64,000 bases of DNA from an uncultured delta proteobacterium (lineage in GTDB: Bacteria; Desulfobacterota; Binatia; DP-6): contig CAWFFN010000005.1 of the NCBI GenBank assembly GCA_963815115.1, positions 608,001 to 672,000 on the forward strand, read 5' to 3'. The notes under the pieces were generated by a model. The model was not told the origin of the DNA. It made no database searches and saw nothing but the letters and a program-made list of their open reading frames with translations. A program made the position numbers and the translations under genes. Position 1 is the stretch's first letter. Each line of letters opens with the position of its first letter. Below, in pieces: positions 13,694-48,452 of the stretch.

Positions 13694-17011
<3,318 letters not shown>

Positions 17012-17029
17012 CTCCGACGGCGTGGAGGG

Positions 17030-17045: not shown

Positions 17046-17139
17046 GCGAATCGGCGCGGTGGCCGTGTCGTGCGATCGTTGCAGGGCGGGCCGGTGCCCG
17101 CCAGGCGAGCAGCATCCTCCCGTGCGGGAGGCACCGAGG

Positions 17140-19278: not shown

Positions 19279-22200
19279 CGCACCTCCAGCGGCGAGTTCG
19301 GCAGCTCCCCGAACGTCTCGGGAGCGTACAGCGCCTCGACCCGCGTCGGAGGGAGCTGGAAGGTGCCCGGCTGGCTCAGCCGGATGACGTACTCCGCGAC
19401 GAAGCGCCCCTTCGGGACGTACTCGTAGTAGGCATGGTAGCTGGCAAACGTGCGCTCGACGAAGGTGGGGGTGAGCTGCGCGAGGTCCTCCGCGTCGCTT
19501 GCGGCGCCGGACCCGATCCCGCTGGCGAGGTGGGAAGCGCCCGCGGGAATGGGATCGTCGACCACCACCCAGCCCATGTCGCTCTGTGCCTCCACCTCGA
19601 GCCTGATCCGCAGGCGGTCGTCACGATGGAGCACGCCGGGCTCGGCGGCCTCGATCGGTTCCACGCGCTTCGTGATGCGGAAGCCGCTGGCCAGCGGCTC
19701 GTGCAGCGGGATGGCGGCACGAGACGAGACGGTGAGCCATGGCCGTCCCGTGCCCGCGTGCTCGATCGACAGCTCCGCCGGGCCGGCCGGCCACGCCAGG
19801 TCGAGCGTGCCGCCCGCCGGGGTCTTCGCCCACGTGACTGCCTCGCGCTCGCCGCCGAGCACGACGGTGGTGAGGCCGGTCACCGGGGTGGCCTCGAACG
19901 CGCGCGTGAAGCGCTCGACGGCGAGCGTGCCCCAGGCGTTCGCCGGTGTGGTGCCCCAGTGCCCGCCGCGCTGGAGCCCGAGCGCGCCGCGCACCAGGCG
20001 GGGCAGCTCGTCGTGCCACGCGCCGGCGTCGGTGAGGAGGAGCGCGAGCCGCCCCGCGTTCACTGCCGGACCCGTCATGAACCACCACAGATCGTCCTGC
20101 GCGGCCGTCGAGAAGCGCAGCGTCGTTCCGGAGAGATCGAGGCGCGCGCGTACGATCTGCTCCGCCTGTGCAAGCCGCGCGGCACGATCGGGGACCCCGG
20201 GCACGCGGCGCAGGATGCTCCACCAGTCGAGCACCGCGGACGTGGGCCAGAGCTCCGGCTCGGCCTCGATGCTCTGGAGGTCGGATGCCTCCGCCCGGCC
20301 GTAGCGCGACAGCGCCTCGAGGGCCGCGAGCTTGCGCAACGGCAGGTCGGGCAGGCGTGAGTCGCGGCGAAGCTTGCCGTCCGCGAAGCGCCGCAGACCT
20401 TGCAGCATGGCGTCGCGCGCGTCGCCGGGCAGCGCCCATCCCGCCGTGCTCGAGAGCGCGAGCACGTAGCTGGTGAGCACCTCGCTGCCCTCGGCCTGGG
20501 TCGGGAAGTACTTGAGGAGCCCATCGCGGTCCTGGAAGGCGGGAAGCGCGGCCGTCACGTCGCGCCAGATCGCCTGGTCGCCCAGCGCGACGGCGCGCGA
20601 GACGCGTTGCTCGAGGCAGGTGAACGGGTAGCGACGCATCCAGTCGCGCACGCCGTCGAGACCGGCGTCGAGGCTCGGTGCCAGGCTCACGGCGACGCCG
20701 CCACGGTCCGCGAGCGCGTCGTCGGGCCGCTGGACCGGGACCGGTGCGCCGTCGGGGGTCCACTGCAGGAGCGTCGCGGCGAGGGTGGTCACCGGTACCG
20801 CTGGCAAGACCTGCTCGGTCACGCGCACGTGGTCGGCGGCGCCACCACGCTCCGCGACCTCGACGTCCCAGGCGAGGCTGGTGGCACCGGCGGGCACGGT
20901 GACGTCCCAGCCCGCGACCGCCGCCTCGCCCGCGGCGAGCGAGAGCGTCTGCGGGGCCAGCGGCTCCGTGAGCCCCGCCACCGTGCCTCGCAGGTCGACG
21001 GTCATCGCGCGATCGGTCGTGTTGCGCACCGTGAGTCCGGCGCGGAAGCGGTCGCCCTCGCGCACCAGCGGCGGCAGTCCGGGAAGCACCATCAGGTCCT
21101 GCGTCGAACGGATCGACGTGCCGCCGCTGCCGAACATCCCCAGACCGGCGGTCGCGATGGCCTCGATGCGGAAGCTGGTGAGCGAGTCGTTGAGCGGGAC
21201 GTCGACGTGCGCCTCGCCGTTCGCGTCGAGCGCCACGCGGCCCTGCCAGAGGAGCAGCGTGTCGAACAGCTCGCGGGTCGGCTGTCGGCCGCCACCGCCG
21301 CCGCCCGGGATCGCCTTCAGGCCGTAGTGCCGCTTGCCGACCACCTCGAGCGTCGCCGTCGCCGTCCGGACGCCGTAGCCGCGGCGGCCCATCATCGCGT
21401 CCAGGACCTTCCAGCTCTGATTCGGCGCGAGCTCGAGGAGACCTTCGTCGACGACCGCCACCGCGATCTCCCCGCCCGCCGCCAGTGGCTTGCCGTCGGC
21501 GTCCTTCACGGCGATGGTCGCGGCGGCATGCTCGCGCGGTCGGTAGACTGGTCGATCGGTCGTCACCGTCACATCGAGCGTGTGGGCACGCCAGCCGACC
21601 TCGATCTCGGCGATCCCGAGCTTGAAGGCAGGCCGTCCGAGATCCACCATCGCGGTCGGCTGGACGTCGCCCACGCGTCCGCGCACCACCAGCACGGAGA
21701 CGAAGACGTTGGGCGCCCACGCCGCCTCGACGGGCAGCTCGATCACCGGCGCCGTTCCCGAAAGGGACACCACGCGCGCGTCCATGACGCCCTCGCGCTC
21801 GAGCGTCACCAGCGCGGTGGCCTCGCGGAACGGCATGCGGACCTGGAAGCGTGCGGTCTCGCCCGGGTCGTAGTGCCGGCGCTCGGGCAACACGTCGATG
21901 CGGTCGGCGTCGCCGGTCTCGAACCACCACTGCTGGCCGCGCGACACCCACACGTCCGTGCTCGCGGCGGCGGTGTGCCCGTCGGGATCGGTGACCGACG
22001 CCTGCAGCACCACGTCGCCGCCGACCGCCGGGCGCCCCGAGCACGCGAAGCGGCCCTGGGGGTCGGTGACGCCGCGGCACAGCTCGCCCACGCGGCGGAC
22101 CTCGGTGGTGTGGTCGTAGGCGTAGAATCCGCCGACCACGCGCTTGCGCGTCGAGGAGGTGCGCCGCTCGAAGACGTCGATCCGGACGGGCGCACCGGCG

Positions 22201-24860: not shown

Positions 24861-24874
24861 CGCTTCGTCCTCGA

Positions 24875-26107
24875 TCAGAAGACGGGATGGATCGCCTTCA
24901 ACCGCTCCTCGGCCGCGGCCACGAGGGCGTCCTCGGCGCGCTCGTCCGCCGCCTCGTAGGTCACCGAGAAGCGGAGGTGCGGCCCGGCGTCGTCCCACGG
25001 GACGGTGACGATCGAGTGCTCGTGGATCAGGTGCTGGCTGGCCGCCTCGGCGTTCTCGAACTGCAGGCCGCCCGCCGTGCCGCGCGGGGCCTGGACGTAG
25101 AGGAAGTAGGTGCCGCCGGGCATGTCGCACGTGAAGCCGCACCGCCGCAGCATGGCGACGAGCTTCTCGAGGCGCCGGCGGTACTTGTCGCGGGTGCGGC
25201 GCGGGATGTCGAGATCGTCGAGGGCGGCGATGGCGGCCTTCTGGATCGCAATGAACTGACCCGAGTCGCTGTTGTCCTTGACGTCGGCGAGCGCCTGCAC
25301 GAGGCGGGCGTGGCCGCAGAACCAGCCGAGCCGCCAGCCGATCATGTCGAAGCCCTTCGACATGGAGTGGATCTCGATGCCGACGTCCCTGGCGCCGGGC
25401 ACCGCGAGGAACGAGAGCGGCTCGCCCTCGAACGTGAGCGCGGCGTGGATGGCGTCCTGCACCACGACGACGTGGTGCTCCAGCGCGAAGTCGACCACGC
25501 GCCGGTAGAAGTCGCGGGTCGCGACGACGCCGGTCGGGCTGTTCGGGTAGTTGAGGACGAGGAGCTTGGCGCGGCGCTTCACGTCGGCGGGGATGCCGTC
25601 CAGGTCGGGAAAGAAGCCGTGCTCGCGCAGCAGCGGCAGCCGGTGCACCTCGCCGCCGTAGTACCGCGTGTGCGTGCCGGCGACGGGGTAGCCCGGCACG
25701 GTCATGAGCGTCACGTCGCCCGGGTTGATGAAGCAGGCGGGGATCATGGCGAGCGCCGGCTTGCCGCCGATCGAGTGGTTGACCTCCGTCTCCGGATCGA
25801 GCCGGACGCCGAAGAAGCGCTCCATGAAGCGTGCCGCCGCCTGCTTGAAGGCCGCGATGCCGTTGTCGGCGTAGCCGCGATTCTCCGGCTTGCCGATCTC
25901 CTCGGCCATGACGCGGCGGACCAGCTCGGGCGCCACGCCGTCGTTCTCGCCGATGCCGAAGTCGAGCAGCTGCCGCTCCGGGTGGTCGGCCAGCGCCTGA
26001 CGCTTGGCACGCTTGATCTTCTCGAACTTGTAGATCTCGGTGCCCTTGCCGTAGCGCGCGCCGCCGATGCGGTCGGCGAAGAGGGTCTGGAAGTAGGGGT
26101 CGCTCAT
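24875..26107 (-). CDS. dapL: LL-diaminopimelate aminotransferase
   Basis: YKFEKIKRAK, LNYPNSPTG, HSMSKGFDMIGWRLG (PLP lysine), DNSDSGQF. Confidence 0.85.
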   Translation of the reverse strand: MSDPYFQTLFADRIGGARYGKGTEIYKFEKIKRAKRQALADHPERQLLDFGIGENDGVAPELVRRVMAEEIGKPENRGYADNGIAAFKQAAARFMERFFGVRLDPETEVNHSIGGKPALAMIPACFINPGDVTLMTVPGYPVAGTHTRYYGGEVHRLPLLREHGFFPDLDGIPADVKRRAKLLVLNYPNSPTGVVATRDFYRRVVDFALEHHVVVVQDAIHAALTFEGEPLSFLAVPGARDVGIEIHSMSKGFDMIGWRLGWFCGHARLVQALADVKDNSDSGQFIAIQKAAIAALDDLDIPRRTRDKYRRRLEKLVAMLRRCGFTCDMPGGTYFLYVQAPRGTAGGLQFENAEAASQHLIHEHSIVTVPWDDAGPHLRFSVTYEAADERAEDALVAAAEERLKAIHPVF

Positions 26108-26332
26108 GGTGGCGTCTCCGCTCGGGGGATCGGGACGCTTCTATACGCCGCAACCGGGTGGGAACAAGGTTGGGGAGGGGGGAGGTTGCCCGGGACGCCA
26201 CGAGCGGACGGTCGCCCAGTATGGAGTCCATTGACGTGTCGGTGCGCGGGGCCTATCTGTCGCGGCTGCGTAGATCTCGTGCCTGGAGCGGTTCGCGTTT
26301 TGCCCGAGATGCGAAAGGAGGTGGGTGGGAGC

Positions 26333-32266: not shown

Positions 32267-33740
32267 GAGCCTGACCCAAGACTCCGCCGCATTATGTTGC
32301 TAGAAGGGCGACATGGCGGAGGCGGGACGGTGGAAGCCGTATGTGCAGCGGCAGGGGCAGCTGCTGCCGACGTTCGTTGAAGACACGCTCGACCCGAGCG
32401 ATCCGGTCTTTTTCATCGACGACGCCGTCGAGAGTCTCGACCTGACGCCGTTCGAGCAGCGCTACGCCGAGACGGGCGAGCATGCCTACGCGCCGCGGCT
32501 GTTGCTCAAGCTGTGGCTGTACGCGGCGACGCAGGGCGTATTCAGCGGCCGGGAGATCGCGCGGCGGCTCCGGCGCGACCTAGCTTTCCGGTACCTGGCG
32601 GGGGACGGGCCGGTGCCAGATTTCCGGACGATCAATCGCTTCCGGGTGCGGCATCGGGAGGACTTCGCCTGGGTGCTGCGGGCGACCGTCCGGCTGGCGC
32701 GCGGGGCCGGGCTGGTGAAGCTCGGGCTCGTGACGGTGGACGGCACGAAGTTGCGGGCGAACACGTCGCGGCACAAAGCGATGAGCCACGCGCGGCTCCA
32801 GCAGGAGGAGGCGCGGCTCGAGGCCGAGCTCGCCGCGTTGGTGACCAAGCTGGATGACGTGCAGGCCGCGGAGGACCGCGAACACGGCGAGGACGACGAC
32901 GGCAGTGGGGGGTTACCCGCCGAGCTGCGGACGCGGGAGCAGCGGCTGGCCAAGCTGCGGGCGGTGCGGGCGCAGTTGGAGGCCGAGAAGGGTGCGACGT
33001 TGAAGCCGCGGCACCAGAAGAGCTTTGCCGACCCCGACGCGCAGATGATGCGCGCGGGGGACGGGGCCTTGGTCTACGCCTACAACGCCCAGGCAGCCGT
33101 GAGTGCGGACGGGCTGATCGTGGCGACCGGGGTGACGACGGCGGTGCGGGACATTGGGCAGTTGGTCCCCATGATCGAGGCGGTGACCGCGACGACCGGA
33201 GAGTCGCCTGGCTGCACGGTGGCCGACAATGGGTATCTCACGGAGGCGAATCTCGCGACCCTCGCGGAGCGGGGCGTGCGGTGTCTCGTGGCGGTGGGCC
33301 GCGAGGGCAAGGCCGTGCGGTGGCCGCAGGGACCGCACACCCAGCGCATGCATCGCCTGCTCCATCTGCCGTGGGCGCAGCGCTGGTATGCCTGGCGAAA
33401 GACGCAGGCGGAGCGTCCTTACGCGGAGATCAAGCACGCGATGGGCTTTCGCCGGGTCGCGCTGCGGGGCGTGGCGAAGGTCGGCGGCGAGTGGGACCTC
33501 GTGTGCGCGGCCTTCAACCTGCGGCGGCTGCGGGCGCTGGGCCTCGTCCCGGCGTAGACTCTGCCGCACACGCGGCGTGCGTCGGGGGCGTGGGGTCGCC
33601 GTCGGAGCGAATCCGCAGCCCCTTGCGCGCGCTCGCGGCCCATCGATGCGGCGCTGCACACTCGTCGGCGCGCATGGGGCGAGGACGCTGAGCGGAGACG
33701 GTGACCCCACGCCCCCGCACCGGCGTCTCGGGTCACGCTC
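32267..33740 (+). mobile_element. IS1182-family insertion sequence with 20-bp imperfect terminal inverted repeats and a CTAG target duplication
   Basis: IRL GAGCCTGACCCAAGACTCCG (32267-32286) matches the reverse complement of IRR (33721-33740) at 17/20. CTAG at 32263-32266 and 33741-33744. Confidence 0.9.
32313..33557 (+). CDS. IS1182-family DDE transposase
   Basis: Y.PRLLLKLWLY, SGREI, PDFRTINRFR, DGTKLRANTS, YNAQ, ADNGY, AERPYAEIK, GEWDLVCAAFNL. Confidence 0.92.
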   Translation: MAEAGRWKPYVQRQGQLLPTFVEDTLDPSDPVFFIDDAVESLDLTPFEQRYAETGEHAYAPRLLLKLWLYAATQGVFSGREIARRLRRDLAFRYLAGDGPVPDFRTINRFRVRHREDFAWVLRATVRLARGAGLVKLGLVTVDGTKLRANTSRHKAMSHARLQQEEARLEAELAALVTKLDDVQAAEDREHGEDDDGSGGLPAELRTREQRLAKLRAVRAQLEAEKGATLKPRHQKSFADPDAQMMRAGDGALVYAYNAQAAVSADGLIVATGVTTAVRDIGQLVPMIEAVTATTGESPGCTVADNGYLTEANLATLAERGVRCLVAVGREGKAVRWPQGPHTQRMHRLLHLPWAQRWYAWRKTQAERPYAEIKHAMGFRRVALRGVAKVGGEWDLVCAAFNLRRLRALGLVPA

Positions 33741-37272: not shown

Positions 37273-38949
37273 ATGGAGGAGGGACGGAGCGACTCCCTCG
37301 CGGCGTGGGCGGCGACGGCCGAACGCATCGGGGCCACCACCAGGCGGCTCGAGAAGGGCGCCATCCTGGCGCGCTACCTCGCCGCCCTCGACGCCCCGTC
37401 GGTCGTCGTCGCGGCGCGCTTCTTCGGCGGGACGGTCTTCGCGCGCCACGACGCGCGCACGACGCGGGTCGGCCCCTCGTTGCTCACGGGGGCGCTCACC
37501 GCGGTGTCGGGCGCGGATCCGGCGACCCTCGGTGAACGGTACGTCGCGCACGGCGACGCGGGGGATCTCGCGGCCGAGCTGCTCGCGGGCCGGCCCGACG
37601 CCGCCCTCGGGCTGACCGAGGTGGCGGAGCGCCTGGCGGCTCTCGGCGCCGCGGCCACGACGGCGGAGCGGCGATCCGACCTCGAGGCCCTCCTCGCCAG
37701 CGTCGGCTCGCGCGAGGCCCGCTACCTCGTCCGGCTTCTCCTCGGCGAGCTGCGCATCGGGCTCAAGGAGGCGCAGGTCGAGGAGGCTTTGGCGGCGGCA
37801 TTCGCGCGGCCGCTCGCCGCCGTGCGCCGGGCACACCTGCTGCGCGGCGACCTGGGCGAGGTGGCCCGGCTCGCGCGCGCAGACGACCTCGATTCCGCCC
37901 GTCTGGCGCTCTTCCATCCCCTCGGCTTCATGCTGGCGCAGCCGCTCGCGACGGCGGCCGAGATCGTCGAGCGCCTCCCGGCGCCCTTCGTCCTCGAGGA
38001 CAAGTACGACGGCATCCGCGCCCAGGCCCACGTGAGCGACGGCAGCGTCGTGCTCTTCTCGCGCACGCTCGACGACATCACCGCCGGTTATCCCGAGGTG
38101 GCCGCGACTCTCGCTGCGCTCGGCGAGGGGCTGGTGGTCGACGGCGAGCTGCTCGCGGTCGATCCCGACCAACCCGAGCGCGCGCTGTCATTCAAGGCGT
38201 TGCAGCAGCGGCTCGGTCGCAAGCAGCCCGGCGCCGCGCTGCTCGCCCGAGTGCCGGTCACCTTCATCGCCTTCGACATCCTCGCCGCCGGCGGGGAGCT
38301 GGTCATCGACGAGCCGTGGTCCGAACGCCACGCGCGCCTGGATACGCTCGCGTGGCCCGCGCGCGGGGCGCGCCTGGCGCCCCATCGCCTGTCGGCGGGA
38401 GCGGAGGAGATCGAGGCCGCCTTCGGCGCCGCGCGCGCCGCGGGCAACGAGGGACTGGTCGCGAAGGACCCGGATTCGGCGTACGCACCGGGCCGGCGCG
38501 GCGGCTCGTGGTTCAAGCTGAAGCGGCCGCTCGCCGCCCTCGACGTGGTCGTGACGGCGGTCGAGCGGGGCCACGGCCGGCGCCGCGCGGTGCTCTCCGA
38601 CTACACCTTCGCCGTCCGCGCGGCGGAGGACGATCCGCGCCTGCTGGTGGTCGGCAAGGCGTACAGCGGGCTCACGGATGCCGAGATCGCCGCGCTCACC
38701 GAACGCTTCGAAGCGCTCACGATCGAGCGGCGTCCGGGCTGGCATCGGGTGCTGCCCGAGGTGGTGCTCGAGGTCACCTTCGACACCGTGCAGCCCTCGA
38801 ACCGCCATTCGTCGGGCTACGCGTTGCGCTTCCCGCGCATCGTGCGGGTGCGCGACGACAAGCCGGCGGCCGAGATCGACACCCTCGCCCGCGTCCGGGA
38901 GCTTGCGAGCCGAGACTTCGTCTCGGCTCGCGGCGGAGAGCGAGAGTGA
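37273..38949 (+). CDS. ATP-dependent DNA ligase (LigB-like)
   Basis: EDKYDGIR (motif I), DGEL, AFDIL, EGLVAK, WFKLK, LRFPR...RDDK. Confidence 0.92.
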   Translation: MEEGRSDSLAAWAATAERIGATTRRLEKGAILARYLAALDAPSVVVAARFFGGTVFARHDARTTRVGPSLLTGALTAVSGADPATLGERYVAHGDAGDLAAELLAGRPDAALGLTEVAERLAALGAAATTAERRSDLEALLASVGSREARYLVRLLLGELRIGLKEAQVEEALAAAFARPLAAVRRAHLLRGDLGEVARLARADDLDSARLALFHPLGFMLAQPLATAAEIVERLPAPFVLEDKYDGIRAQAHVSDGSVVLFSRTLDDITAGYPEVAATLAALGEGLVVDGELLAVDPDQPERALSFKALQQRLGRKQPGAALLARVPVTFIAFDILAAGGELVIDEPWSERHARLDTLAWPARGARLAPHRLSAGAEEIEAAFGAARAAGNEGLVAKDPDSAYAPGRRGGSWFKLKRPLAALDVVVTAVERGHGRRRAVLSDYTFAVRAAEDDPRLLVVGKAYSGLTDAEIAALTERFEALTIERRPGWHRVLPEVVLEVTFDTVQPSNRHSSGYALRFPRIVRVRDDKPAAEIDTLARVRELASRDFVSARGGERE

Positions 38950-39176
38950 AACTCGATCAACAATGCGGGCGTCGTGCCGCGAGCGGCAAAGCCGCCGCGG
39001 CAGCCGTTTCGGAGCACGAGGCCGGAGCCGAAAACCCAGGCGTGCGCGCCGCGCGGAGCGAAGCCAACGTTCTGCCGCGCCGGCTTCGCCGGCCGCGGCA
39101 CGGCGTTCGCCGTATCTACCGAACGCCACACGCTCGCTCTCCGTGCCGACCCGAGACGGAGTCTCGGGTCGCGTGA
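38901..39176. mobile_element. MITE-like long imperfect palindrome with terminal hairpins
   Basis: Hairpins at 38905-38931 and 39147-39171, nested inverted repeats inside. Right end matches the IS1182 IRR at 15/20 and abuts CTAG. Confidence 0.55.
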
Positions 39177-40409
39177 CTAGAAGGTGGCCTCGAGACCGAC
39201 CAGCGGGATCGGGCTGGTGTGAATGCCCTGCTCGGAGAGCGGCACGAGCACGTTGGCGAAGCCGAAGACGGTGTCGTTCCAGAGATTCAAGCGTCCACCG
39301 ATGGAGAGCGCGTAGTAGCTCGGGCGTACGCTGCTCAGGCCGAAGAGCGGAGCGGTGGGATGCGCGCAGCTCGGACTCGACACCGGACAGCCGTTGCGTG
39401 GATTGTAGCGCGGCAGGTCGAAGAAGCCGGCGGACGCGAAGCCGTGGAACGGCTCGCGCCCGAGGAAGCCGAACGACAGGGTCGCCCGATTGGCCAGCGC
39501 CACGTCGAAGCCCGCGCCGAAGCGGCCCTCGCTCACGTCCACGTCGTCGAGGACGAGATCGAGGCCGCCGTTCACGAAGGCCTGGACGGAGACCGGGCCC
39601 GCGATCGGGATGCGGTGGGTCGAAAGGTAGAGCAGCGGGGACAGCTCCCAGGAGCCGGTCCCCTGGAAGTTCTCCTCGTTGCCCGTCGGCATGCGCACCA
39701 CGAGCCCGAACGCCGCGGCGCCCCAGGGGTTCTTGAAGAAGCGGTACTTGCCGCGGAGCAGGAGGTCGCCGACGCCGTTGGCGTGCGAGATGTCCTGCTC
39801 GAACCTCGTCCCGCGCTGCTCCGGCGGGATCGGGACCAGGCTGTTGTCGCTCGGGTTGCGCTTGAACTCGCTTCCCATCGACCCGACGGAGAGCCGGCTG
39901 AAGAGCACCGGCAGCGCGAGGTTGACCTCGAGATCGTCCGTGATCCCGTACGTGCCCTGGAACGTCATCTCGTCGACGACGAGATCGACGGCGTAGCGGT
40001 CGAACCGGAAGAGCCGTCCGCCCCTGGAGGCGTTCTGGCCCGGGAGGATGATCGGCAGCCTGCTGTCGTGCAGCTGGTCGAGGTTCTCGTCCTGGACCGC
40101 GTCGACCGCGACGCGCTGGTAGCTCGCGCTGACGTTCCACTTCCCGCGTCCGATCGGCTGCGCGCGCTCGAGGTAGAGCTGCCCCAGCAGATCGGTCTCG
40201 CGCTCGAAGGACCCCGACGCCGGATCGAACGTGAAGGTGAGGCCGGGCGACGCGGAGATGACGGGAAGCGATCGGGCCACCGTCGCGGAGAGCGCCTGGC
40301 CGAGCGGCTTGGCGGGACCCCGGAACACGGACTCGAACGTCCGAGCCTCGAGCGGGGCGGCGCCGAGCGACGTCACGACGACGGCGGCGAGGAGCCGCCG
40401 CGCGGTCAC
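39177..40409 (-). CDS. Probable outer-membrane beta-barrel protein (uncharacterised)
   Basis: Signal peptide from GTG overlapping the upstream TGA; amphipathic beta-strands; GVGDLLLRGKYRF, MPTG....GTG; C-terminal GLEATF. Confidence 0.7.
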   Translation of the reverse strand: MTARRLLAAVVVTSLGAAPLEARTFESVFRGPAKPLGQALSATVARSLPVISASPGLTFTFDPASGSFERETDLLGQLYLERAQPIGRGKWNVSASYQRVAVDAVQDENLDQLHDSRLPIILPGQNASRGGRLFRFDRYAVDLVVDEMTFQGTYGITDDLEVNLALPVLFSRLSVGSMGSEFKRNPSDNSLVPIPPEQRGTRFEQDISHANGVGDLLLRGKYRFFKNPWGAAAFGLVVRMPTGNEENFQGTGSWELSPLLYLSTHRIPIAGPVSVQAFVNGGLDLVLDDVDVSEGRFGAGFDVALANRATLSFGFLGREPFHGFASAGFFDLPRYNPRNGCPVSSPSCAHPTAPLFGLSSVRPSYYALSIGGRLNLWNDTVFGFANVLVPLSEQGIHTSPIPLVGLEATF

Positions 40410-42610
40410 TGCGGTCCCCTCAAGCCGACGATCTTCCAGTCGCCGTCGGCTTCCTTGCGCAGCATCCCGGTGGTGGTGACCTCGAGGTGGATCTTCTTGC
40501 CGGTCTTCGCGTCGGTGAACTCGTCCCGGCGGGTGAAGGTGGCGGCGGCCTGGTCGCCCTGGCGGAGCACGTCGATGCCGGAGATCTGCACCTTCAGATC
40601 GGGTGCGATCTGGAAGTAGGTCTGCAGCTTCTGGCGCTGCGATTCGCTCATCTGCTCCTGCAGGGCGGCGATCTGGTCGACGTTCCTCGCCTCCAGGGCG
40701 GCGCCGTAGCGGTTGAGGAGGCTCCGGATGGCGGCGTCGTCGCCGTCCTCCTCGGCGGCCCAGGCCATCGACTGTCCGAACAGCCAGGAAGATCCGCCGG
40801 GAGCGGGCAGCGGCGGGGTCGCCGTGGGCTCGGACGGGCGGGGTCCCGCGCGCGGCTCGTCGGACGGTGTCGGGTCGCCAAGGGTCTCCGTGAAGAGGCG
40901 ATAGACGTCGAGCGTCTCGTTGCCGCGGCTGGCGACGATCTCCTTCAGCTGCTGCGGGGTCGGTGTGACGCCGAGTGCGCGCAGGGTACGTTCCGCGAGC
41001 TCGTTCTCGAGCTCCATCAGCTTCTCCGGCGGCCCCTGGACGTGCTCGGTCGCCACCAGCAGCCCCGTGGCCGCATCGATGACGTCCAGGTCGAGCGACA
41101 CCAGCTTGTCGTCGAGCGCGATGCTCGCCGAGAGCATCCTGTTCATGTGCAGCTGCGCCGCAGCCTCGATCTCGCTCAGCCCCTTCGTCTTCTGCAGGAA
41201 GTCGATCATCTGGCGCGAGAAGACCTGGATGGGCGGGAACTTGCCGAGAATGGTGATGAGCCCGTCGCGGGTGAGCTGCCGCATCCAGGCCGGAACGCCA
41301 GGCGTGCGGGCGCGCACCTCCATCACGCCGATGCGGATCGGCGTCTGCGGACCCGTCGAGGTGCGCCGGAACACGCCCACGCCGATCGCCGCGGCGAGCG
41401 CGACGAGCGCCACGATCGCGGCGAACCGGCCGGGGCGTCGTCGCGGTGCGACGACCGTGGCGGGCGCGGGCACGGGGGCACGGATGGGGGCGGGCGGCTC
41501 GACGGCAGGCGGTGCCGGTGCGGGCCGCTCGGGCGCTTGCGCCGGCGGCAGCTGCGGCAGCGGCACGACCGCGCCGCTGCGCAGCAGGGTCTGCCCTGGG
41601 TTGCCGTAGAGCACGAACGAGAGCCAGGTCGGCGAGCCGGCGCTCTCCGGCCTGCGGCGGCACTCGGCGCGCGCGTCGCGCAGCGCCTCGCCGATCGGGA
41701 CGGGCTCGAGCACGCGCCGGTAGAACGCCTCGGCGAGCGTCGCGGCGTGCCGGTCGCTCACGTCGGCGAGTGTCCCGACCACGGCAACCGCGCCGCCGAA
41801 GAGAAACGCGTAGGCCACGCTCGACACGGTCGCTTCCCAGGAGCCGCTCGCGGGTCCCTGGTGCTCGCGTGCGCTGGCGCACGCGTTCAAGAAGACGAGA
41901 GGCCGGCCGGCGACGTTGGGCTCGATCACCGCCGGGGACAGCGGGCGCGAGTCGGCGAGCAGGAGCGCCGGGCCGGTCTCCTCGCTGGTGATGACGTGGC
42001 CACAGTAGTGGATGAGATCGAAGCCCTCGCCGAGATACGCCGCGACGGTCTCGAAGCTCGCCAGCCGGTCGACGACGCACACGATGTCGGCGAACGGCTC
42101 GAGGGTCTCGCAGACGCCCTCGACCTCCTGGCGCACGAAGGGCAGGTCGCCGCGCGGATCCGAGCCGATGACCAGCGCCCGCGGCCGCGCGCGCATGCGC
42201 GGCGTGGCGCCGGCGAGCAGTGGGCGGTCGAGCACGAGGCGCTTGCCGAGCCCGTAGCGCAGCCCCCAGAACTCCTCCTCGTCGTGCAGGAGCTCCCACG
42301 GCATGCCGTAGAGCGACGTGCTGATCAGGAGCGGCCCCGAGACGCCCCGCAGCTTCTCGCGCAGGCGGGCCGGGACGAGCGTGCGGTAGATCACCTGGCC
42401 GCGCGCCTGCGCCTCCTGGGCGAACGTCTTGCTCTCGGGGCTGCGCAGCAGCGACTCGGCGCTCGCCAGGAGGGCGCGCGTGGTGACGTCGTCGACCGGA
42501 TGGCGGAACTCTTCCTGGAGCGGCTCGCCGAGGTCGCGCTCGGGGATGTCGAGCCGGTAGCGGAGCGCGCCCGCGGTCCGCTCGATGGAGAGCGTCGGGA
42601 CGAGCCTCAT
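40406..42610 (-). CDS. Membrane-anchored CHAT (caspase-like) protease with periplasmic TolB-N/CsgG-like and NTF2-like domains
   Basis: MPWELL, DLP...QEV, IHYCGH, VFLNAC, VSD..A...AEAFY, EALRDAR, FVLYG; one TM helix after RRRPGR. Confidence 0.85.
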   Translation of the reverse strand: MRLVPTLSIERTAGALRYRLDIPERDLGEPLQEEFRHPVDDVTTRALLASAESLLRSPESKTFAQEAQARGQVIYRTLVPARLREKLRGVSGPLLISTSLYGMPWELLHDEEEFWGLRYGLGKRLVLDRPLLAGATPRMRARPRALVIGSDPRGDLPFVRQEVEGVCETLEPFADIVCVVDRLASFETVAAYLGEGFDLIHYCGHVITSEETGPALLLADSRPLSPAVIEPNVAGRPLVFLNACASAREHQGPASGSWEATVSSVAYAFLFGGAVAVVGTLADVSDRHAATLAEAFYRRVLEPVPIGEALRDARAECRRRPESAGSPTWLSFVLYGNPGQTLLRSGAVVPLPQLPPAQAPERPAPAPPAVEPPAPIRAPVPAPATVVAPRRRPGRFAAIVALVALAAAIGVGVFRRTSTGPQTPIRIGVMEVRARTPGVPAWMRQLTRDGLITILGKFPPIQVFSRQMIDFLQKTKGLSEIEAAAQLHMNRMLSASIALDDKLVSLDLDVIDAATGLLVATEHVQGPPEKLMELENELAERTLRALGVTPTPQQLKEIVASRGNETLDVYRLFTETLGDPTPSDEPRAGPRPSEPTATPPLPAPGGSSWLFGQSMAWAAEEDGDDAAIRSLLNRYGAALEARNVDQIAALQEQMSESQRQKLQTYFQIAPDLKVQISGIDVLRQGDQAAATFTRRDEFTDAKTGKKIHLEVTTTGMLRKEADGDWKIVGLRGPQ

Positions 42611-42836
42611 CGAGCCCCGTACGGGCTGCGCTGGGAGCCGGCGTGCAACCCGCGGGCTACCCGGGCGCCGCACACGGACCCCTGACCCGGCACGCCACGA
42701 GGACGACGGGGTCTCAGGCCTGCTTCGTCGCGCACGGACGTCGTCTCGGTGGAGCGCACCTAGCATCGCGAGGCCCGTGGGTCCACTCCGGGTTCGTCGA
42801 GGGTCGCGCGGCGGCGAGGCCACGGTCTCTCGCCGG

Positions 42837-43736
42837 CTACGCGGCGAGCTCGACGTCGAACCGGAGCTTGAACCTTAGCGTTCGTTCCCGTTCGTGCAGC
42901 TCGAGCACGTACCGTCCGGGTCTCACGCCCTTCACGAGCACGGGGGCCGTTCCCCTGACCGTGTAGCGCGCGACCAGTTCGGCGCGGTCCGCTTCTACCA
43001 CCCGGAGCTGCACCGAGAGCTCGCTGGTCTCGGACCCGGAGACGCGGAGCGCAATCGCCACCAGCTCATCGCTCTGCGCCTCGAGTCGGAGTTCGACCCA
43101 GAGTCCCGAGTCCGCGAGCGCGAACTGAACCTCCTGGCCGAGCCCCGGTGCGGTGGCCTCGGAGGAGTCGGCATCGAGGCCCCGCATCGCGCCCACAGGA
43201 ACGGGCACCGCGCCGACCAGGAAGCCCTCCGGGACCTCGGTGAAAACCGCGGCGGCGCGTCCGACCCGCACGACGGCGTGTCCGACCACCTCGCGCACCT
43301 TCGCACCGAATCGGTTCGCCGTCTCGCGCCACCGTGGCGCGGGAGCCAGGAGCGGCTCGAGTTCCCCGCGCGCCGCGGCGCGCTCGACGGCGATCAGCTC
43401 GACCAGCCGCTCCCGGCAAGCGATGCACCAGCCCAGGTGACGGGCGAGCGTAGGCTCCCGGTTGCGGATGTCGGCCGCAGCGAGGTCGGTGACAAGGTAG
43501 AGCCGATCCTGCACTGCGTCGCAGCCGAAAAGGGACTGCATCCGGTCCGACTCTGCGGGGAGCTCCCCGGTCGCCAGCTCGTAGACCGTCCGCAGGATGG
43601 ACCAGCAGTCGGAGCACCAGGCGGCGTGCTCCTCGGCGGCCCGCCGATTGGCGGCGGTCTCCGGCTCGCCCGGCTGAGCGGGCGGCGACGCGAGCAGAGT
43701 GGCGATGCAATCCTCGTGGTTCACGGCTGCAACCAT
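42837..43736 (-). CDS. Putative soluble anti-sigma factor with two HxxxCxxC zinc-binding motifs
   Basis: HAAWCSDC and HLGWCIAC; directly downstream of the ECF sigma gene; no TM helix. Confidence 0.7.
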   Translation of the reverse strand: MVAAVNHEDCIATLLASPPAQPGEPETAANRRAAEEHAAWCSDCWSILRTVYELATGELPAESDRMQSLFGCDAVQDRLYLVTDLAAADIRNREPTLARHLGWCIACRERLVELIAVERAAARGELEPLLAPAPRWRETANRFGAKVREVVGHAVVRVGRAAAVFTEVPEGFLVGAVPVPVGAMRGLDADSSEATAPGLGQEVQFALADSGLWVELRLEAQSDELVAIALRVSGSETSELSVQLRVVEADRAELVARYTVRGTAPVLVKGVRPGRYVLELHERERTLRFKLRFDVELAA

Positions 43737-43773
43737 CGGGACGAAAGTCCGCAGTGGGATGTGTCGCCCCCCG

Positions 43774-44358
43774 TCACTCGGGGTCCTCGAAAGCCTGGCG
43801 AAGGGCCTTGCGAATGCGTTTGAGCTGTCCAGCCACGCTGTCCCTGGTGAGTCCTTGACGCGCCGCGATCTCCTTTTCGGGCAGGTCGTCCACGAACTTG
43901 AGGCGGGCCACCTCGAGTCGCGACACGGCGCGCGCCACGATGGCGAGCCGCTCCCGGTGGGCCGCGAGGTCCTCGGGGCCGGGGGCGTCGTCCGGAAGGG
44001 AGTCCCGCAGCGCGTGCTCGGGGTCGTCCTCGGGCATGCCGACGTAGCCCCGCCGGCGCGAATGGCGGCGACCGTCGCGGGCCAGGTCCAGCACGGTGTG
44101 GACGAAGAGGGAGCGGGCCCAGGCTTCGAGCCGGTCCGCGTCGCGCAGCGTGTCCAGCTTCTCGCACGAGATCAGCTTCAGAAGAGCCGTCTGGACGGCG
44201 TCCTCGAGGTCGTCCTGGAGCTGGGGGTAGCGCCGGCGGCCGAGCGCGAGCCAGTGGCGCCGGAAGCCCTCCAACACGTTGCCGAGGCGTGGATCGGGCG
44301 TCCCCGACTGTGCAGAGCGCAAGATGCCGAGGATGGCTTCCGGCGGCCCAGTCAGCAC
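43774..44358 (-). CDS. ECF-type RNA polymerase sigma factor
   Basis: Region 2 DLEDAVQ...LEAWARS...VLDLAR; region 4 LPEKEIAARQG....VAGQLKRIRKALR. GTG after AAGGGG (start uncertain). Confidence 0.85.
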   Translation of the reverse strand: MLTGPPEAILGILRSAQSGTPDPRLGNVLEGFRRHWLALGRRRYPQLQDDLEDAVQTALLKLISCEKLDTLRDADRLEAWARSLFVHTVLDLARDGRRHSRRRGYVGMPEDDPEHALRDSLPDDAPGPEDLAAHRERLAIVARAVSRLEVARLKFVDDLPEKEIAARQGLTRDSVAGQLKRIRKALRQAFEDPE

Positions 44359-44588
44359 TTCATCGTTCCCCTTCGAGATTGACCGAAGCCCCCCCACCCG
44401 GTCAAGGTAGCGAACAGGGAGGATGACACACTGCTACGCGGAGGGGCGTCCCTCTCAGCAGACCGCGCAGATGCGAGGCTCAGATGTCGAGGGGGAAAGC
44501 GGCTCGAGTGCGAGTCGAGCTGCGAATGGCCTTTTTCCGGGACTCTGGAGAAGGTAACCTTTCCGATCCCGCCCAAAGATCCCTCATC

Positions 44589-47500
44589 ATGCGGCGTCAT
44601 TCTCGGTCGATTGTCTTCGCTTCGCTGGTCATTCTTCTCCTGACTGGGCTGGCGCGCGCCGACGACATCACCTGCGGTGAAACGCTCTCGCGCGTCATCG
44701 ACGACCGCGGCGTCGATGACGAGCTCACCTTCACGGCGCTGCAGGGCGAGGTCGTCAGCGTCACCGTCGCCGCGGCCGCGGGTCAGCCGTTCAAGTTCGA
44801 TCCGCGGTGGGAGATCACCGATTCCGACGGTCACAAGGTGCCGCTCGCGAACGACGACACGCGTTGCGCCTCCACCGAGCATCAGTGCGAGACCCTCCCG
44901 TTTGCGGCCAGCGACACCTATACGCTCTCCATCCGGGACGACAATCACAACGCGGCCGGCACCTACAACGTCACCCTCGAGGCCGTGTCCGCCACGGCGA
45001 ACGGCGCGCTCAACGGGCCGCCGGCGCAGGTTCCCGCGTGCGCGCGCCTCAATCAGAGCGGCAAGCCCGATGGCACGCAGCTGATCGAACGCGGGCAGCT
45101 CGTCGGTGGCGCCATCGACGTCTTCGGCGAGACCGACACCTTCACCTTCGCCGCCTCGGCCGGCGACGTGGTGACCATCGGGCTCGCGACCGGCGGCTCG
45201 CCCGCCGATTCCTTCGACCCGGTCTGGCGGCTCTTCGATCCCGCCGGCGCGGTCGTCGGTGGAGGGGACCAGGGCATCGTCTACTGCCCCGACACGTGCG
45301 ACCGGGGTCCGCTGCCCGCGGCCGGCATCTACACCATCAAGGTCTACGATTTCGGCTACGACGGCGCCGGCGACTACACGCTGTTCCTGCAGAACGCCGC
45401 GGTCACCACGACGACCACGATCACCACCACCACCGCCGCGCCCGCGACCACCACCACGACGCTGCTGCCGGCGGGCACGGCTCCGATCTACGAGCTGGCG
45501 AAGACGCTCCGGCGTCTCGGTTCGGCGGAGGAGCTCGGTGCGGCGCTCGCCGCGACCCCGGACCGGCTGATCATCGGCTCGCCCGCGGACCAGACGAGCG
45601 GTCCCGCCGCCGGCGCGGTGTTCGTCGTGAGCCTCTTCGGCACTCCAGGCGATCCGAACTACGGCCAGCTGCTGGCAACGCTGGTCAAGCCGAGCGGGCC
45701 GAGCGCGAAGGACGACCGCTTCGGCGCCGCGCTGGCGCTCATCGATCAGAGCATCCTCGTCGGCGCGCCGGGTGACGACACGAAGGGCGAGGACGCCGGC
45801 GCGGCATACGTCTTCGGAGCCGACCTCCGGCCGGCGCTGCGCGACCCGCTCACCTCACCGCGGGGCGCGGCTGGCGGCCGCTTCGGTGCCGCCGTCGCGG
45901 TGGTCGATGGCCAGGCGCTCGTCGGCGCTCCCGGTGAGGACGGCGTGGGACGGGTCTATCTCTTCGATCCCGCCGGAACGCCCATCCAGAATTTCGATGC
46001 CGCCGCTGCCGTCGCCGGCGCAATCGACGTGCAGAACGCCAATGCCGCCACGGCACGCGCCGGGGATCGGTTCGGGTCGGCGATCGCCGCGTCGGGTGAC
46101 GAGATCGTCTTCGGCGCGCCCGCCGACGTCAACAACCCCGGACGCGTGTTCCTCTTCAACAGCCGGACGGGCAAGTGGCAGGTCATTGCCAGCCCGAGCC
46201 CGTCGCCGGGCGACGGCTTCGGCTCGGCCGTGACGTTCGCGGGCAACGCGCAGATCGTCATCGGCGCGCCGGGGGTCGAGAAGATCTTCGTGGTCGGGCA
46301 GCAGCGCGGCAAGCCGGCGCAGGACGTCGGGCTCGCCCCGAGCGGCGGGCTCGGAGCCGCGGTCGCCGCGTTCGGTTCGAATCAGCTCCTCGTCGGCGCG
46401 CCGACGGACGGCGCCGCCACGGGCGGAGCGGCGTTGCAGGTCCGGCTCGACAACAACCCCTCCAAGAGCGAGATCCTGACCAAGTTCGTCAAGAAGCTTC
46501 CCGAGGCAGGCGATGGGTACGGCACGGCGGTGGTCGCGGCAGGCGCTCGCATCGCGATCGGTTCGCCGGGCGACAACGCCGGCACCGTCAGCGGGGGCGC
46601 CGTGTACGTCTACGGCCCGACCAGCACCACGCCGGAGGCGGTGTTCCGCAAGCGTCTCACCCCGTCGGGATTCGGCAAGGCGCTGAGCGCCAATGCCACC
46701 GACGTGGTCGTGGGAGCGCCGGAGGATGTCGAGGGCCACGGCGCCGTCTACCGCTTCGATACGCGCATCCCGTGCACGCCGAACTGTCCGCTGCTCGGAT
46801 CGGCGGTTACGGGCCCAGTCGCCGGCTCGCGCTTCGGCCAGACCGTCGCGGTGCTCGACGGGACGACGCTGGTCGGCGCACCGTCCCAGGACGGCGCGCA
46901 GGGCCAGGAGAGCGGTGCCGCGTACCTGGTGAACCCGACGCAGGTCGGTCCGCTGCTGGCGGATCCCGAGCCCTTCCCCGGCGATCAGTTCGGCTTCGCG
47001 GTCGCCGCGGCCGACAACGACCTCCTGGTTGGCGCGCCGCTTCTCGGCAGCTCCGACACCGGCGCGGTCTTCGTCTTCGAGCAGAGCGACGGCTTCCCCC
47101 GTCGCGTGACGTACCGCAAGCCCACGCCCACCGCGGGCGATTTCTTCGGCGCCGCGATCGCGGTCGACGGGGACACCGTCGCCGTCGGCGCGCCGTTCGA
47201 CAACGCGGCCGCACAGAATGGCGGCGCCGTCTACCTCTTCCGTCGCTCCACCGCGGAGCTGCTGCGGACGGACCCGCTGGTGAGCAACGCCCCGGTCGCG
47301 CGCGAGCTGTTCGGCTCCGCACTGGCGATCAGCCCCCAGTGGATCGTCGTCGGCGCTCCGCTCCAGGACGGCAGCAACGACGCGCCCGGCAAGGCCTACG
47401 TCTTCGACCGCGCCACGTTCGCGCTGGTGCGCAGCCTCGCCAGCCCGAGTCCCCACCCCGGGGATCACTTCGGCGCTTCGGTGGCGATCGTCGGCGGCTA

Positions 47501-48452
47501 CGTCCTGGTCGGTGCCCCGTATGACGACTCCGGCGCCACGCAGACGGGCGCGGCCTACCTCTTCGAGCCCGCCTCCGGGAACCTGGCGCAGGTCTTCAAC
47601 AACCCCGCGCAGAACGCCTTCGACCACTTCGGCCAGGCGGTCGTCGCCGGGCCAGCGGGTCCGGTGATCGGCGCTCCCGGTCCGTCGCGCGTCTACGTCT
47701 ACCAGCCCGCCTCGGGTGGCCTCACGGTCCGCAATGCGCATGGCATCACCGCCGCCGCCTCCGGGCCGCGGTGCGGCAACGGCATCGTCGAGGGCGCCGA
47801 GCAGTGCGACGACGGCAACTCGATCGATACCGACGATTGCCGCAACGACTGCACGCTCCAGAAGTGCTGCACCATCGACCCGCTCGCAGCCGACCGTTGC
47901 AACGACTTCGACCCCTGCACGGACGACGTGCTCGATGCCAGCGGCGGCTGCAGGAACGTGGACAACGGCACCTGCTGCACCTCGGACGCGAGCTGCACCG
48001 GCAACGGCACCTGCCGCCTGTGCGCAGGATGCTCGCTGTTCCCTTGGGACTGCTGCGACCAGGGCGCCGCCTGCATCCTCAAGTCATCGGAGTGCTCCGA
48101 TAAGACGTGCTTCGATGCGGCGACCTGCGAGTGTGAGGGAGGCCTCACCTGCAGCGACGGCGCCGTGCCCACGGAGATCTCGAGTCTCTTCGTGCCGGCC
48201 TGCGACATGCTGCGCCTGGAGCAGGACGGCAGCTCGGACAGGACGCCGCTCCAGGTCGCGCGGCTCGCCGCGAAGGAAGCCCGCAAGATGCTCCGCAAGG
48301 CGATGCACCGCACGCGCGAGCAGCTCTCCCGGCACGTCATCTCCAAGGGCTGCCGCAAGGAGATCATGACCACGCTTCGCCAGGTGCGACGCTCCATCCC
48401 GGAGGGCCAGCACATGCGGAAGTGCGTGGCTCATGAGCAGCCGGGAGCCTGA
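44589..48452 (+). CDS. Large secreted protein: two PPC-like domains, FG-GAP/integrin-alpha repeats, cysteine-rich repeats and a basic helical C-terminus
   Basis: Signal peptide ARA-D; D.FTF.A..GDVV.I; Thr-rich linker; many FG.AVA....VGAP...GAVY repeats; CGNGIVEGAEQCDDGN. Confidence 0.85.
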   Translation: MRRHSRSIVFASLVILLLTGLARADDITCGETLSRVIDDRGVDDELTFTALQGEVVSVTVAAAAGQPFKFDPRWEITDSDGHKVPLANDDTRCASTEHQCETLPFAASDTYTLSIRDDNHNAAGTYNVTLEAVSATANGALNGPPAQVPACARLNQSGKPDGTQLIERGQLVGGAIDVFGETDTFTFAASAGDVVTIGLATGGSPADSFDPVWRLFDPAGAVVGGGDQGIVYCPDTCDRGPLPAAGIYTIKVYDFGYDGAGDYTLFLQNAAVTTTTTITTTTAAPATTTTTLLPAGTAPIYELAKTLRRLGSAEELGAALAATPDRLIIGSPADQTSGPAAGAVFVVSLFGTPGDPNYGQLLATLVKPSGPSAKDDRFGAALALIDQSILVGAPGDDTKGEDAGAAYVFGADLRPALRDPLTSPRGAAGGRFGAAVAVVDGQALVGAPGEDGVGRVYLFDPAGTPIQNFDAAAAVAGAIDVQNANAATARAGDRFGSAIAASGDEIVFGAPADVNNPGRVFLFNSRTGKWQVIASPSPSPGDGFGSAVTFAGNAQIVIGAPGVEKIFVVGQQRGKPAQDVGLAPSGGLGAAVAAFGSNQLLVGAPTDGAATGGAALQVRLDNNPSKSEILTKFVKKLPEAGDGYGTAVVAAGARIAIGSPGDNAGTVSGGAVYVYGPTSTTPEAVFRKRLTPSGFGKALSANATDVVVGAPEDVEGHGAVYRFDTRIPCTPNCPLLGSAVTGPVAGSRFGQTVAVLDGTTLVGAPSQDGAQGQESGAAYLVNPTQVGPLLADPEPFPGDQFGFAVAAADNDLLVGAPLLGSSDTGAVFVFEQSDGFPRRVTYRKPTPTAGDFFGAAIAVDGDTVAVGAPFDNAAAQNGGAVYLFRRSTAELLRTDPLVSNAPVARELFGSALAISPQWIVVGAPLQDGSNDAPGKAYVFDRATFALVRSLASPSPHPGDHFGASVAIVGGYVLVGAPYDDSGATQTGAAYLFEPASGNLAQVFNNPAQNAFDHFGQAVVAGPAGPVIGAPGPSRVYVYQPASGGLTVRNAHGITAAASGPRCGNGIVEGAEQCDDGNSIDTDDCRNDCTLQKCCTIDPLAADRCNDFDPCTDDVLDASGGCRNVDNGTCCTSDASCTGNGTCRLCAGCSLFPWDCCDQGAACILKSSECSDKTCFDAATCECEGGLTCSDGAVPTEISSLFVPACDMLRLEQDGSSDRTPLQVARLAAKEARKMLRKAMHRTREQLSRHVISKGCRKEIMTTLRQVRRSIPEGQHMRKCVAHEQPGA

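Follow-up and report, generated by a model that had tools for sequence, protein, structure and literature searches.

In the analyzed window, a 64,000-nt stretch from the genome of an uncultured delta proteobacterium of the Binatia (G000:C5:608001-672000), we identified a conserved cassette of four genes for a sigma factor of the extracytoplasmic function (ECF) type, a soluble anti-sigma candidate with two motifs of the zinc-binding anti-sigma (ZAS) type, a CHAT protease with a single transmembrane (TM) helix, and an outer-membrane beta-barrel candidate. We favor, with a probability of about 0.55, a model in which the HetF-like trans-envelope CHAT protease clips the soluble anti-sigma and thereby frees the ECF sigma. 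The comparative evidence, i.e., a core of three genes that stay together, an invariant Arg-Gly loop in the anti-sigma candidate and a gene fusion, fits such a protease-gated anti-sigma. The cassette is a real conserved unit; its mechanism, including sigma binding, cleavage, topology, signal and regulon, is what we infer from it.

Among the major modes by which bacteria transduce signals, ECF sigma factors rank third, and the known routes of their release are regulated intramembrane proteolysis, conformational or redox changes of the anti-sigma, partner switching, and two protease systems linked to CRISPR (clustered regularly interspaced short palindromic repeats). If our model holds, cleavage of a soluble anti-sigma by a membrane-anchored caspase-fold protease with a sensor in the periplasm would constitute a new route of ECF sigma release and would link HetF-type proteases to transcription. 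The Binatia, in which the cassette occurs, are a soil lineage that is uncultured and has hardly been studied by experimental genetics.

Layout of the cassette

All four genes are encoded on the minus strand in a region of ~70-74% G+C (Table 1). The first-pass annotation of the window had described four co-oriented genes including an ECF sigma, a soluble protein with two HxxxCxxC motifs, a CHAT protein with an intact His/Cys dyad, no N-terminal tetratricopeptide repeat (TPR) array, one TM helix and two further domains, a barrel gene whose start overlaps the stop of the protease gene, and the lack of cas genes or an array. These readings all held, and its views of the barrel as part of the cassette and of the closest precedent had to be amended.

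The longest open reading frame (ORF) of the CHAT gene opens at a GTG at 42823. Since all orthologues align from residue 1 of the ATG at 42610, we assign a protein of 734 aa preceded by a 226-base spacer. The GTG start of the barrel gene overlaps the TGA stop of the CHAT gene as GTGA (4 bases), and the same overlap is found in nine orthologous loci. No Cas family was detected among the 30 ORFs of the window that were scanned (the rest of the genome was not part of the cas scan), and the window carries no CRISPR-like array and gave no Rfam match. PADLOC assigned the cassette to no defense system: the sigma, anti-sigma and barrel proteins had no match, and the CHAT protein reached only 17 bits.

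Table 1. Features of the cassette and its surroundings (window positions).
Feature	Position	Strand	Basis
ECF-type sigma factor, 194 aa	43774..44358	-	TIGR02937 match, GTG start backed by orthologues
Soluble tandem-ZAS anti-sigma candidate, 299 aa	42837..43736	-	Invariant HxxxCxxC motifs, gene position, distant zf-HC2 relatives
CHAT protein, 734 aa	40406..42610	-	PF12770, orthologue-aligned ATG
Outer-membrane beta-barrel candidate, 410 aa	39177..40409	-	PF13557-like, GTG start
Codons Ala183-Met184-Arg185-Gly186, candidate protease site A-hydrophobic-R|G	43179..43190	-	Conservation and disordered loop
Conserved non-coding block in the anti-sigma/CHAT spacer	42733..42788	-	Intergenic alignment; promoter-like spacing
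Predicted cytoplasmic CHAT (caspase-fold) module, residues 1-345	41576..42610	-	PF12770, Foldseek
Putative catalytic His205 codon	41996-41998	-	
Putative catalytic Cys244 codon	41879-41881	-	
Predicted single TM helix, residues ~395-418	41357..41428	-	Kyte-Doolittle hydropathy and model
Predicted periplasmic sensor, TolB-N-like and NTF2/SnoaL-like	40409..41338	-	Model and Foldseek
Two promoter-like blocks 5' of the sigma gene	44378..44452	-	Alignment of 11 sigma upstream regions
FG-GAP repeat/DUF4215 Cys-rich secreted protein, 1322 aa, divergent neighbor	44484..48452	+	FG-GAP_2, DUF4215

Sigma, anti-sigma and CHAT genes form an invariant core

Full-length CHAT orthologues (E <1e-98) were detected in 13 of the 24 other genomes of the same family, and the 16 genomes that represent further families of the class contained none. 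We examined 15 genome loci around CHAT matches, which span seven genera of one Binatia family. In nine of these the set of four genes is complete, with order and strand unchanged; four more (L029, L037, L038 and L039) are truncated by contig ends and still have the anti-sigma gene directly 5' of CHAT, so that this arrangement is seen in 13/15 loci. The two exceptions are L034, where only 365 bases are available 5' of CHAT, and L040, a paralogue of 30% identity that is cut inside the gene. The sigma gene lies 5' of the anti-sigma gene in 11 of the 15 loci.

A scan of metagenome contigs from soil and peat yielded 26 further CHAT loci. All 18 loci that hold the CHAT N-terminus together with upstream DNA have the anti-sigma gene directly 5', and 13 of them also contain the sigma gene; the remaining five are cut by a contig end. 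Among the other eight loci, four begin inside CHAT and four are short or low-identity (26-33%) matches without an anti-sigma gene. Among sequencing runs listed as sharing words with the queried sequence, none was of RNA, and the shares of all 20 were small (at most 0.18 of the words). Loss of the gene order in relatives had been named beforehand as one of the observations that would speak against the proposal. Order and strand are kept across the seven genera and in the soil and peat contigs. The sigma/anti-sigma/CHAT trio is an invariant core, and the sensor outside the cytoplasm varies.

Neighboring genes would also result if synteny had merely been inherited within one uncultured family and the sigma pair were not functionally coupled to the protease and barrel. 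The flanking FG-GAP protein, a POR subunit, a 114-aa ORF, a ligase and a FIST gene are likewise syntenic in the closer genomes, and in a phylum-wide sample of 401 genomes the anti-sigma profile matched in only two, which belong to family f1. Such an explanation would not account for a trio that is still together in L071-L073, where identity has dropped to 33-49% and both sensors and neighbors differ, nor for the fusion protein P0245 and the translational overlap in L073 that are described below, and we regard it as highly improbable.

The divergent neighbor of the sigma gene encodes a protein with FG-GAP_2 repeats (247 bits, eight stretches) and DUF4215. A relative adjoins the sigma gene in most genome loci (10/15) and in five metagenome loci, and lies 3' of CHAT in L070. 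This adjacency may be plain synteny, since the POR gene and the 114-aa ORF further out are also conserved, and whether the gene belongs to the system is uncertain.

A soluble tandem-ZAS protein with an invariant arginine in a disordered loop

The motifs H37xxxC41xxC44 and H100xxxC104xxC107 of the anti-sigma candidate are invariant in 48/48 relatives, and H7 and C72, the candidates for an upstream ligand of each motif, show a conservation of at least 90%. The protein therefore carries two copies of the H-x3-C-x2-C pattern with an upstream His or Cys that characterizes ZAS sequences, H7...H37/C41/C44 and C72...H100/C104/C107. No hydropathy window exceeds 1.6, so that no TM segment is predicted and the protein is probably soluble. 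The window protein matched no Pfam family at E<=0.1 and scored only 14.9 bits against the RsrA model TIGR03988, and a profile of the family had no match among PDB sequences at E<=10.

An AlphaFold2 (AF2) model of the protein has a mean predicted local distance difference test (pLDDT) score of 82.9 and comprises a predicted helical part with both motifs (residues 7-122), a beta part (136-175), a disordered loop (178-196) and a C-terminal immunoglobulin (Ig)-like beta-sandwich (200-297). Foldseek searches of the whole model against the PDB returned weak matches to generic beta-sandwiches or spurious ones (best E 5.4e-4, TM-score 0.19), and all matches listed by a wide VIA-align search were Ig-like sandwiches that align to residues 146-299 (Z<=7.5), a comparison that barely probed the helical N-terminal part.

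The disordered loop contains a conserved candidate for a protease site. R185 is invariant in 48/48 relatives and A183 is found in 46/48. Hydrophobic residues prevail at position 184 (of 48 relatives, L in 19, F in 8, M in 7, Y in 5, V in 5 and R in 2). At position 186, 42 relatives have G, five have S and one has T, and the ten positions that follow are variable and rich in gaps. R185 and the eight putative metal ligands are also invariant in all six divergent members analyzed (31-46% identity), and residues 181-190 have a mean pLDDT of 40 in the model. The motif A-hydrophobic-R|G, where the bar marks the presumed cut, is a reasonable candidate cleavage site, and it is plausible as such because the CHAT protease HetF cuts its substrate PatU3 after R117.

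A word-indexed search for the anti-sigma family gave 59 clusters, all at >=40% identity and none with a Pfam domain. With the exhaustive profile search, 246 representatives were recovered at a threshold of E<=1e-3, and 134 when it was set to E<=1e-10. Of the 150 representatives listed, 23 were scanned with Pfam, and several distant full-length members score at or above the cut-off (22.2 bits) of zf-HC2 (PF13490), namely P0292 (32.5), P0309 (31.3), P0299 (22.3) and P0275 (22.2). These members show a C-terminus resembling CarboxypepD_reg, below its cut-off. In one database protein, P0317 (452 aa), the tandem HxxxCxxC part is joined to a long C-terminal region with multiple TM segments instead of the beta-sandwich.

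A CHAT protease with a predicted periplasmic sensor

The CHAT protein matches PF12770 at 96.3 bits (cut-off 24) and Peptidase_C25 at 28.5 bits, and contains the motifs IHYCGH and FLNAC. H201, G204, H205, N242 and C244 are invariant in 52/52 relatives. The family match, the caspase-like fold of the model and the His-Cys dyad place the protein among the CHAT/clan CD cysteine peptidases, and the invariance of the dyad speaks for catalytic competence.

In the AF2 model (mean pLDDT 83.4, from a 52-row alignment), residues 1-345 form a beta-hairpin/three-helix N-terminal part and a caspase-like core, with the helices at 41-88 preceding the core; neither Pfam nor the model reveals a TPR array. A disordered Pro-rich linker (346-392) and a helix (395-418) are followed by an alpha/beta domain (425-575), a second disordered linker (587-620) and an NTF2-like domain (623-729). 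The only hydrophobic segment above 1.6 is found at 396-414 (Kyte-Doolittle maximum 2.67), and there is no N-terminal signal-like segment. Thus, the layout resembles that of HetF, with an N-terminal CHAT domain, one TM helix and a C-terminal domain in the periplasm according to the predicted topology.

The best Foldseek match of the CHAT domain is DdvA (8rot, E 3.6e-11), followed by separase, Csx29, SAVED-CHAT and gingipain R (RgpB), and the top 30 matches are all CHAT or separase structures. For the C-terminal parts, TolB (2w8b, E 1.8e-5) and an NTF2-like protein (3hx8, E 3.8e-6) were recovered. The source names include 'TolB-like' and 'ketosteroid isomerase-like', and SnoaL_3 matches the sensor at 19.5 bits, below its cut-off.

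The CHAT gene is split into two to three frames in L036/L045 (G001:C13) and L038 (G020:C167), with the G001 pieces covering residues 1-434 and 436-730; these could be frameshifts, assembly errors or decay.

Sensor and output domains are exchanged between receptors

Two divergent metagenome loci keep the trio and replace the sensor. In L073 the CHAT protein (659 aa) continues after its TM helix with TPR_12/TPR_10 repeats (TPR_12 68 bits), and in L072 (545 aa) the TM helix is followed by a small beta-rich domain. Both loci retain the sigma and the tandem-HxxxCxxC anti-sigma (31-32% identity), both lack the barrel, and the anti-sigma and CHAT genes of L073 overlap by 4 bases. A further gene, of ~250-300 aa and Crp/Fnr-type-like by reading alone, is located divergently 5' of the sigma gene in L072 (1126-2019, minus strand) and L073 (2431-3192, minus strand).

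Conversely, the TM helix with the TolB-like and NTF2 sensor recurs with other N-terminal domains at 30-43% identity. TIR_2 takes this place in two loci, L002 of the source genome (78 bits) and L021 (83.7 bits), and four loci, L020, L022, L023 and L024, have a class III cyclase there (29.7-43.5 bits). A relative of the barrel adjoins five of seven sensor-paralogue loci (two TIR, four cyclase and L003). A search for the sigma and anti-sigma near sensor paralogues found no match in ten loci, with flanks of only 1.5 kb. Because the shared sensor carries CHAT, TIR or cyclase, the behavior of the N-terminal domain is that of an output in the cytoplasm under regulation by the sensor. On these comparisons, sensor and barrel constitute a single module whose cytoplasmic outputs are interchangeable, and the sigma/anti-sigma pair is confined to the CHAT output. 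Such a swap on one scaffold suggests a general receptor design in which proximity or oligomerization across the inner membrane drives different cytoplasmic enzymes.

At slightly less than even odds, and thus more tentatively than the basic model, we suggest that the cassette exemplifies a receptor family defined by a TM helix and a TolB-N-like/NTF2-like sensor, often with a MetA-like barrel, that exchanges CHAT, TIR and class III cyclase outputs. The CHAT version would cut a soluble tandem-zinc-finger anti-sigma at the single site A-hydrophobic-R|G, without a membrane-spanning anti-sigma, site-1 and site-2 proteases or CRISPR input.

The TIR sister receptor of the source genome (L002:1102-3997; G000:C9:1146445-1149340) shares 37% identity in the sensor, and a barrel relative of 434 aa (30% identity) is encoded next after it; the gene 5' of the receptor is on the opposite strand. 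A third sensor paralogue of this genome (L003:1492-3003; G000:C12:574175-575686; 30% identity) has a degenerate cyclase-like N-terminus without a Pfam cyclase match, and a gene pair of toxin-antitoxin size is located directly 3' of it. The database protein P0131 (904 aa; source name 'adenylate cyclase/TolB-like') has a tandem of CHAT (71-335) and class III cyclase (362-518) and, judged by its domains, looks like a dual-output version of the receptor.

The exhaustive profile search also recovered one fusion, P0245 (963 aa), which joins the anti-sigma (residues 1-268, E 1e-26) to CHAT (331-680, E 6e-44); it also contains a TPR region and lacks an evident TM segment. A word-indexed search for longer, fused anti-sigma forms found none among 8000 candidates, which is weak evidence.

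The TIR domain of the paralogue matches models of defense systems (SAVED_TIR at 45 bits, and ThsB). This observation bears on a different role for the 299-aa protein, which might mainly be a securin-like inhibitor or pseudosubstrate of CHAT, so that the chief output would be proteolysis elsewhere (in stress, death or defense) and sigma release a side branch. Besides a scaffold that is shared with a defense-type TIR, the placement of the CHAT domain by Foldseek next to separase-securin complexes and DdvA, and the large extra C-terminal beta-sandwich, which ZAS function does not need, could be seen in this light. We consider this role rather unlikely, as PADLOC remained empty for three of the proteins and gave the low score noted above for CHAT, and the sigma is linked as tightly as the anti-sigma wherever the contigs permit.

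Sigma factor and conserved non-coding blocks

The sigma protein matches TIGR02937 at 56.2 bits (cut-off 42.9; residues 42-189), which places it in the ECF (group IV) family, and its Pfam matches to Sigma70_r2 (22.6 bits) and r4_2 (22.5 bits) are both slightly below the cut-offs. GTG start and length are common to ten orthologues. Alignment of 11 upstream regions revealed two conserved blocks, GGGACGC-N15-TGTGTC (44425-44452) and TTGACC-N16-GTCAAT (44378-44405). The strict form of the first motif occurs only once in the 6.9-Mb genome, and a search for a regulon with the relaxed motif gave 39 matches, indistinguishable from chance.

Between the anti-sigma and CHAT genes, which are separated by 150-233 bases in the 14 loci aligned, a further block is conserved in 12 of the 14 intergenic regions. 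It consists of GTGGACC, 17 bases and TAGGTGC, followed by CCGAGACGAC, and its core is found once in the genome. The consensus RNA fold of this spacer (-5.7 kcal/mol) is unconvincing. A strict sigma-70 promoter scan of 38900-44700 found no site, and the number of terminator-like sites was one versus 1.7 expected.

Sigma and anti-sigma might instead form a self-contained zinc/thiol switch for redox or metal signals, with CHAT and barrel as a regulated output that acts on other envelope or cytoplasmic substrates. In favor of such a switch, both HxxxCxxC motifs are complete and have a His or Cys ligand candidate upstream, a promoter-like block is found directly 5' of CHAT in a sizable gap, and the 4-base coupling ties CHAT to the barrel and not to the anti-sigma. 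Yet the overlapping anti-sigma and CHAT genes of L073 leave no room for a promoter, and the block upstream of CHAT has no evident motif in common with the ECF-like block upstream of the sigma gene. A self-contained switch also leaves unexplained the invariant arginine in the disordered loop, and why the trio survives swaps of the sensor while the TIR and cyclase receptors lack a sigma. We therefore judge a self-contained switch to be unlikely, although it is the most serious of the competitors to a protease-gated anti-sigma.

The outer-membrane barrel candidate is a frequent partner

The barrel candidate has an N-terminal signal-like segment and a C-terminal Phe. It scores 17.5 bits against PF13557 (Phenol_MetA_deg), under the cut-off of 22, and 29 of its 30 Atlas feature matches (score 0.99) are clusters that bear PF13557; no Pfam match to a TonB-dependent receptor or plug was found. 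The barrel gene is located 3' of CHAT in 11/15 genome loci and in nine of the 26 metagenome loci. The barrel, which the first-pass annotation had counted among the four genes, is not an obligatory member of the cassette.

Proposed mechanism and points that weigh against it

In the resting state, the soluble 299-aa protein would hold the sigma through its two ZAS-type helical modules. The 734-aa protein would reside in the inner membrane, with the caspase-fold domain in the cytoplasm and the TolB-N-like and NTF2-like domains in the periplasm, and the co-translated MetA-like outer-membrane barrel may deliver or report a ligand in this clade. An event in the periplasm, probably a change in oligomeric state, would switch on the CHAT domain, which would then cut the anti-sigma after the invariant Arg185 in the disordered loop. 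Degradation of the resulting fragments would free the sigma for its regulon, presumably including its own promoter.

Several observations weigh against this proposal. For ZAS anti-sigmas, oxidation of thiols can be enough to cause release, with no protease involved, as is established for RsrA. The anti-sigma role is deduced from motifs, gene position and distant relatives, and the protein's own Pfam and PDB-sequence searches were empty. A cut at R185 spares both ZAS modules; since it leaves them whole, sigma release would require a further step. The charges flanking the TM helix, four versus three, leave the topology unsettled. The promoter-like block in the spacer permits separate transcription, so that CHAT and barrel could be a target of the sigma and not its activator. 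The barrel is absent in six metagenome loci with at least 1.4 kb of downstream DNA (L059, L060 and L070-L073). P0245 has a 60-residue Arg-rich linker and could be a read-through or gene-calling artefact. Finally, all loci are kin, and the locus counts therefore overstate their independence.

Comparison with known CHAT and sigma-release systems

HetF of Anabaena sp. PCC 7120 consists of CHAT, TM helix and periplasmic TPRs and cuts PatU3 between R117 and S118, and substitutions of R117 block the cut (PMC9457339). The system analyzed here shares a cytoplasmic CHAT domain, one TM helix and a periplasmic domain, as well as a single cut, proposed in our case, after an Arg in a soluble regulator (PMC9457339); the L073 variant even has the same CHAT-TM-TPR layout. 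In contrast, the HetF substrate is an inhibitor of cell division and heterocyst formation and not an anti-sigma, and a sigma gene plays no part there (PMC9457339). Moreover, the predicted periplasmic part in our system is TolB-N-like and NTF2-like with a partner barrel, whereas that of HetF is made of TPRs.

The DdvS/DdvA system of Myxococcus xanthus likewise combines an ECF sigma, a zinc-binding ZAS and a CHAT domain in the same signaling unit (PMC11506125). DdvA is described as one chain with a cytoplasmic ZAS, a TM helix, and periplasmic TPR and CHAT (PMC11506125), whereas our anti-sigma candidate is a separate soluble protein with two ZAS motifs, and our CHAT domain precedes the TM helix, is predicted to be cytoplasmic and lacks TPRs. 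DdvA has been proposed to cleave itself, followed by RseP proteolysis (PMC11506125). We rejected an assignment to the DdvA type on the grounds of separate genes, an anti-sigma without TM segment, CHAT in front of the TM helix and no TPR.

In the type III-E craspase system (Cas7-11, the TPR-CHAT protein Csx29, Csx30 and CASP-sigma), CHAT also cuts a soluble inhibitor of an ECF-like sigma (PMC10028731). Further degradation has been invoked there because the cut lies outside the sigma-binding part (PMC10028731), and the same would apply here. The craspase is activated by a target RNA that is recognized with a guide CRISPR RNA (crRNA) in the cytoplasm (PMC10028731), whereas activation in our system would come from outside the cytoplasm. 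A type III-E craspase was rejected: the window has neither a Cas family among its scanned ORFs nor an array, and the type III-E sigma model NF041236 gives the window sigma 15.7 bits versus a cut-off of 100. Of the precedents named by the first-pass annotation, HetF has the closest architecture (CHAT-TM-periplasmic TPR, cut after Arg) and the craspase is not the closest.

The CalpL/CalpT/CalpS system resembles our model in that a dedicated signaling protease cleaves a soluble anti-sigma and releases an ECF-like sigma; it differs in using a SAVED-Lon protease that is activated by cyclic tetra-adenylate (cA4) via type III CRISPR and has no membrane anchor. The RseA/DegS/RseP and FecA/FecR/FecI systems share the conversion of an envelope signal into anti-sigma proteolysis and, in cell-surface signaling, a barrel (PMC10028731, PMC11506125). 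Their anti-sigmas are membrane-spanning proteins, and serine and zinc proteases carry out the cuts (PMC10028731, PMC11506125), whereas our anti-sigma candidate has no TM segment. TonB-dependent cell-surface signaling as in FecA/FecR/FecI was rejected, given the 410-aa MetA-like barrel, the lack of a TonB receptor or plug match, and an anti-sigma without TM segment. Our literature search returned only the HetF, DdvA, craspase and Calp systems, and in none of the papers found was a soluble anti-sigma described as the partner of a membrane CHAT protease. Looking for CHAT in papers on ECF classification yielded a single false match, to the name of an author.

Other genes in the window

At 17140-26231 (minus strand), the gene of a bacterial alpha-2-macroglobulin of 2318 aa (MG2, bMG3, bait region and bMG10) adjoins that of a PBP1C-type transglycosylase/transpeptidase with BiPBP_C. 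Further genes of the window encode a large transglutaminase-DUF2126 protein (13694-17134, minus strand; 1326 bits) and a GAF-adenylate/guanylate cyclase with multiple TM segments (8033-10567, minus strand). A DDE transposase (32313-33557, plus strand; DUF772, DDE_Tnp_1 and DDE_Tnp_1_6) is located between dehydrogenase genes; ~5.6 kb separate it from the cassette, on the side of the barrel gene.

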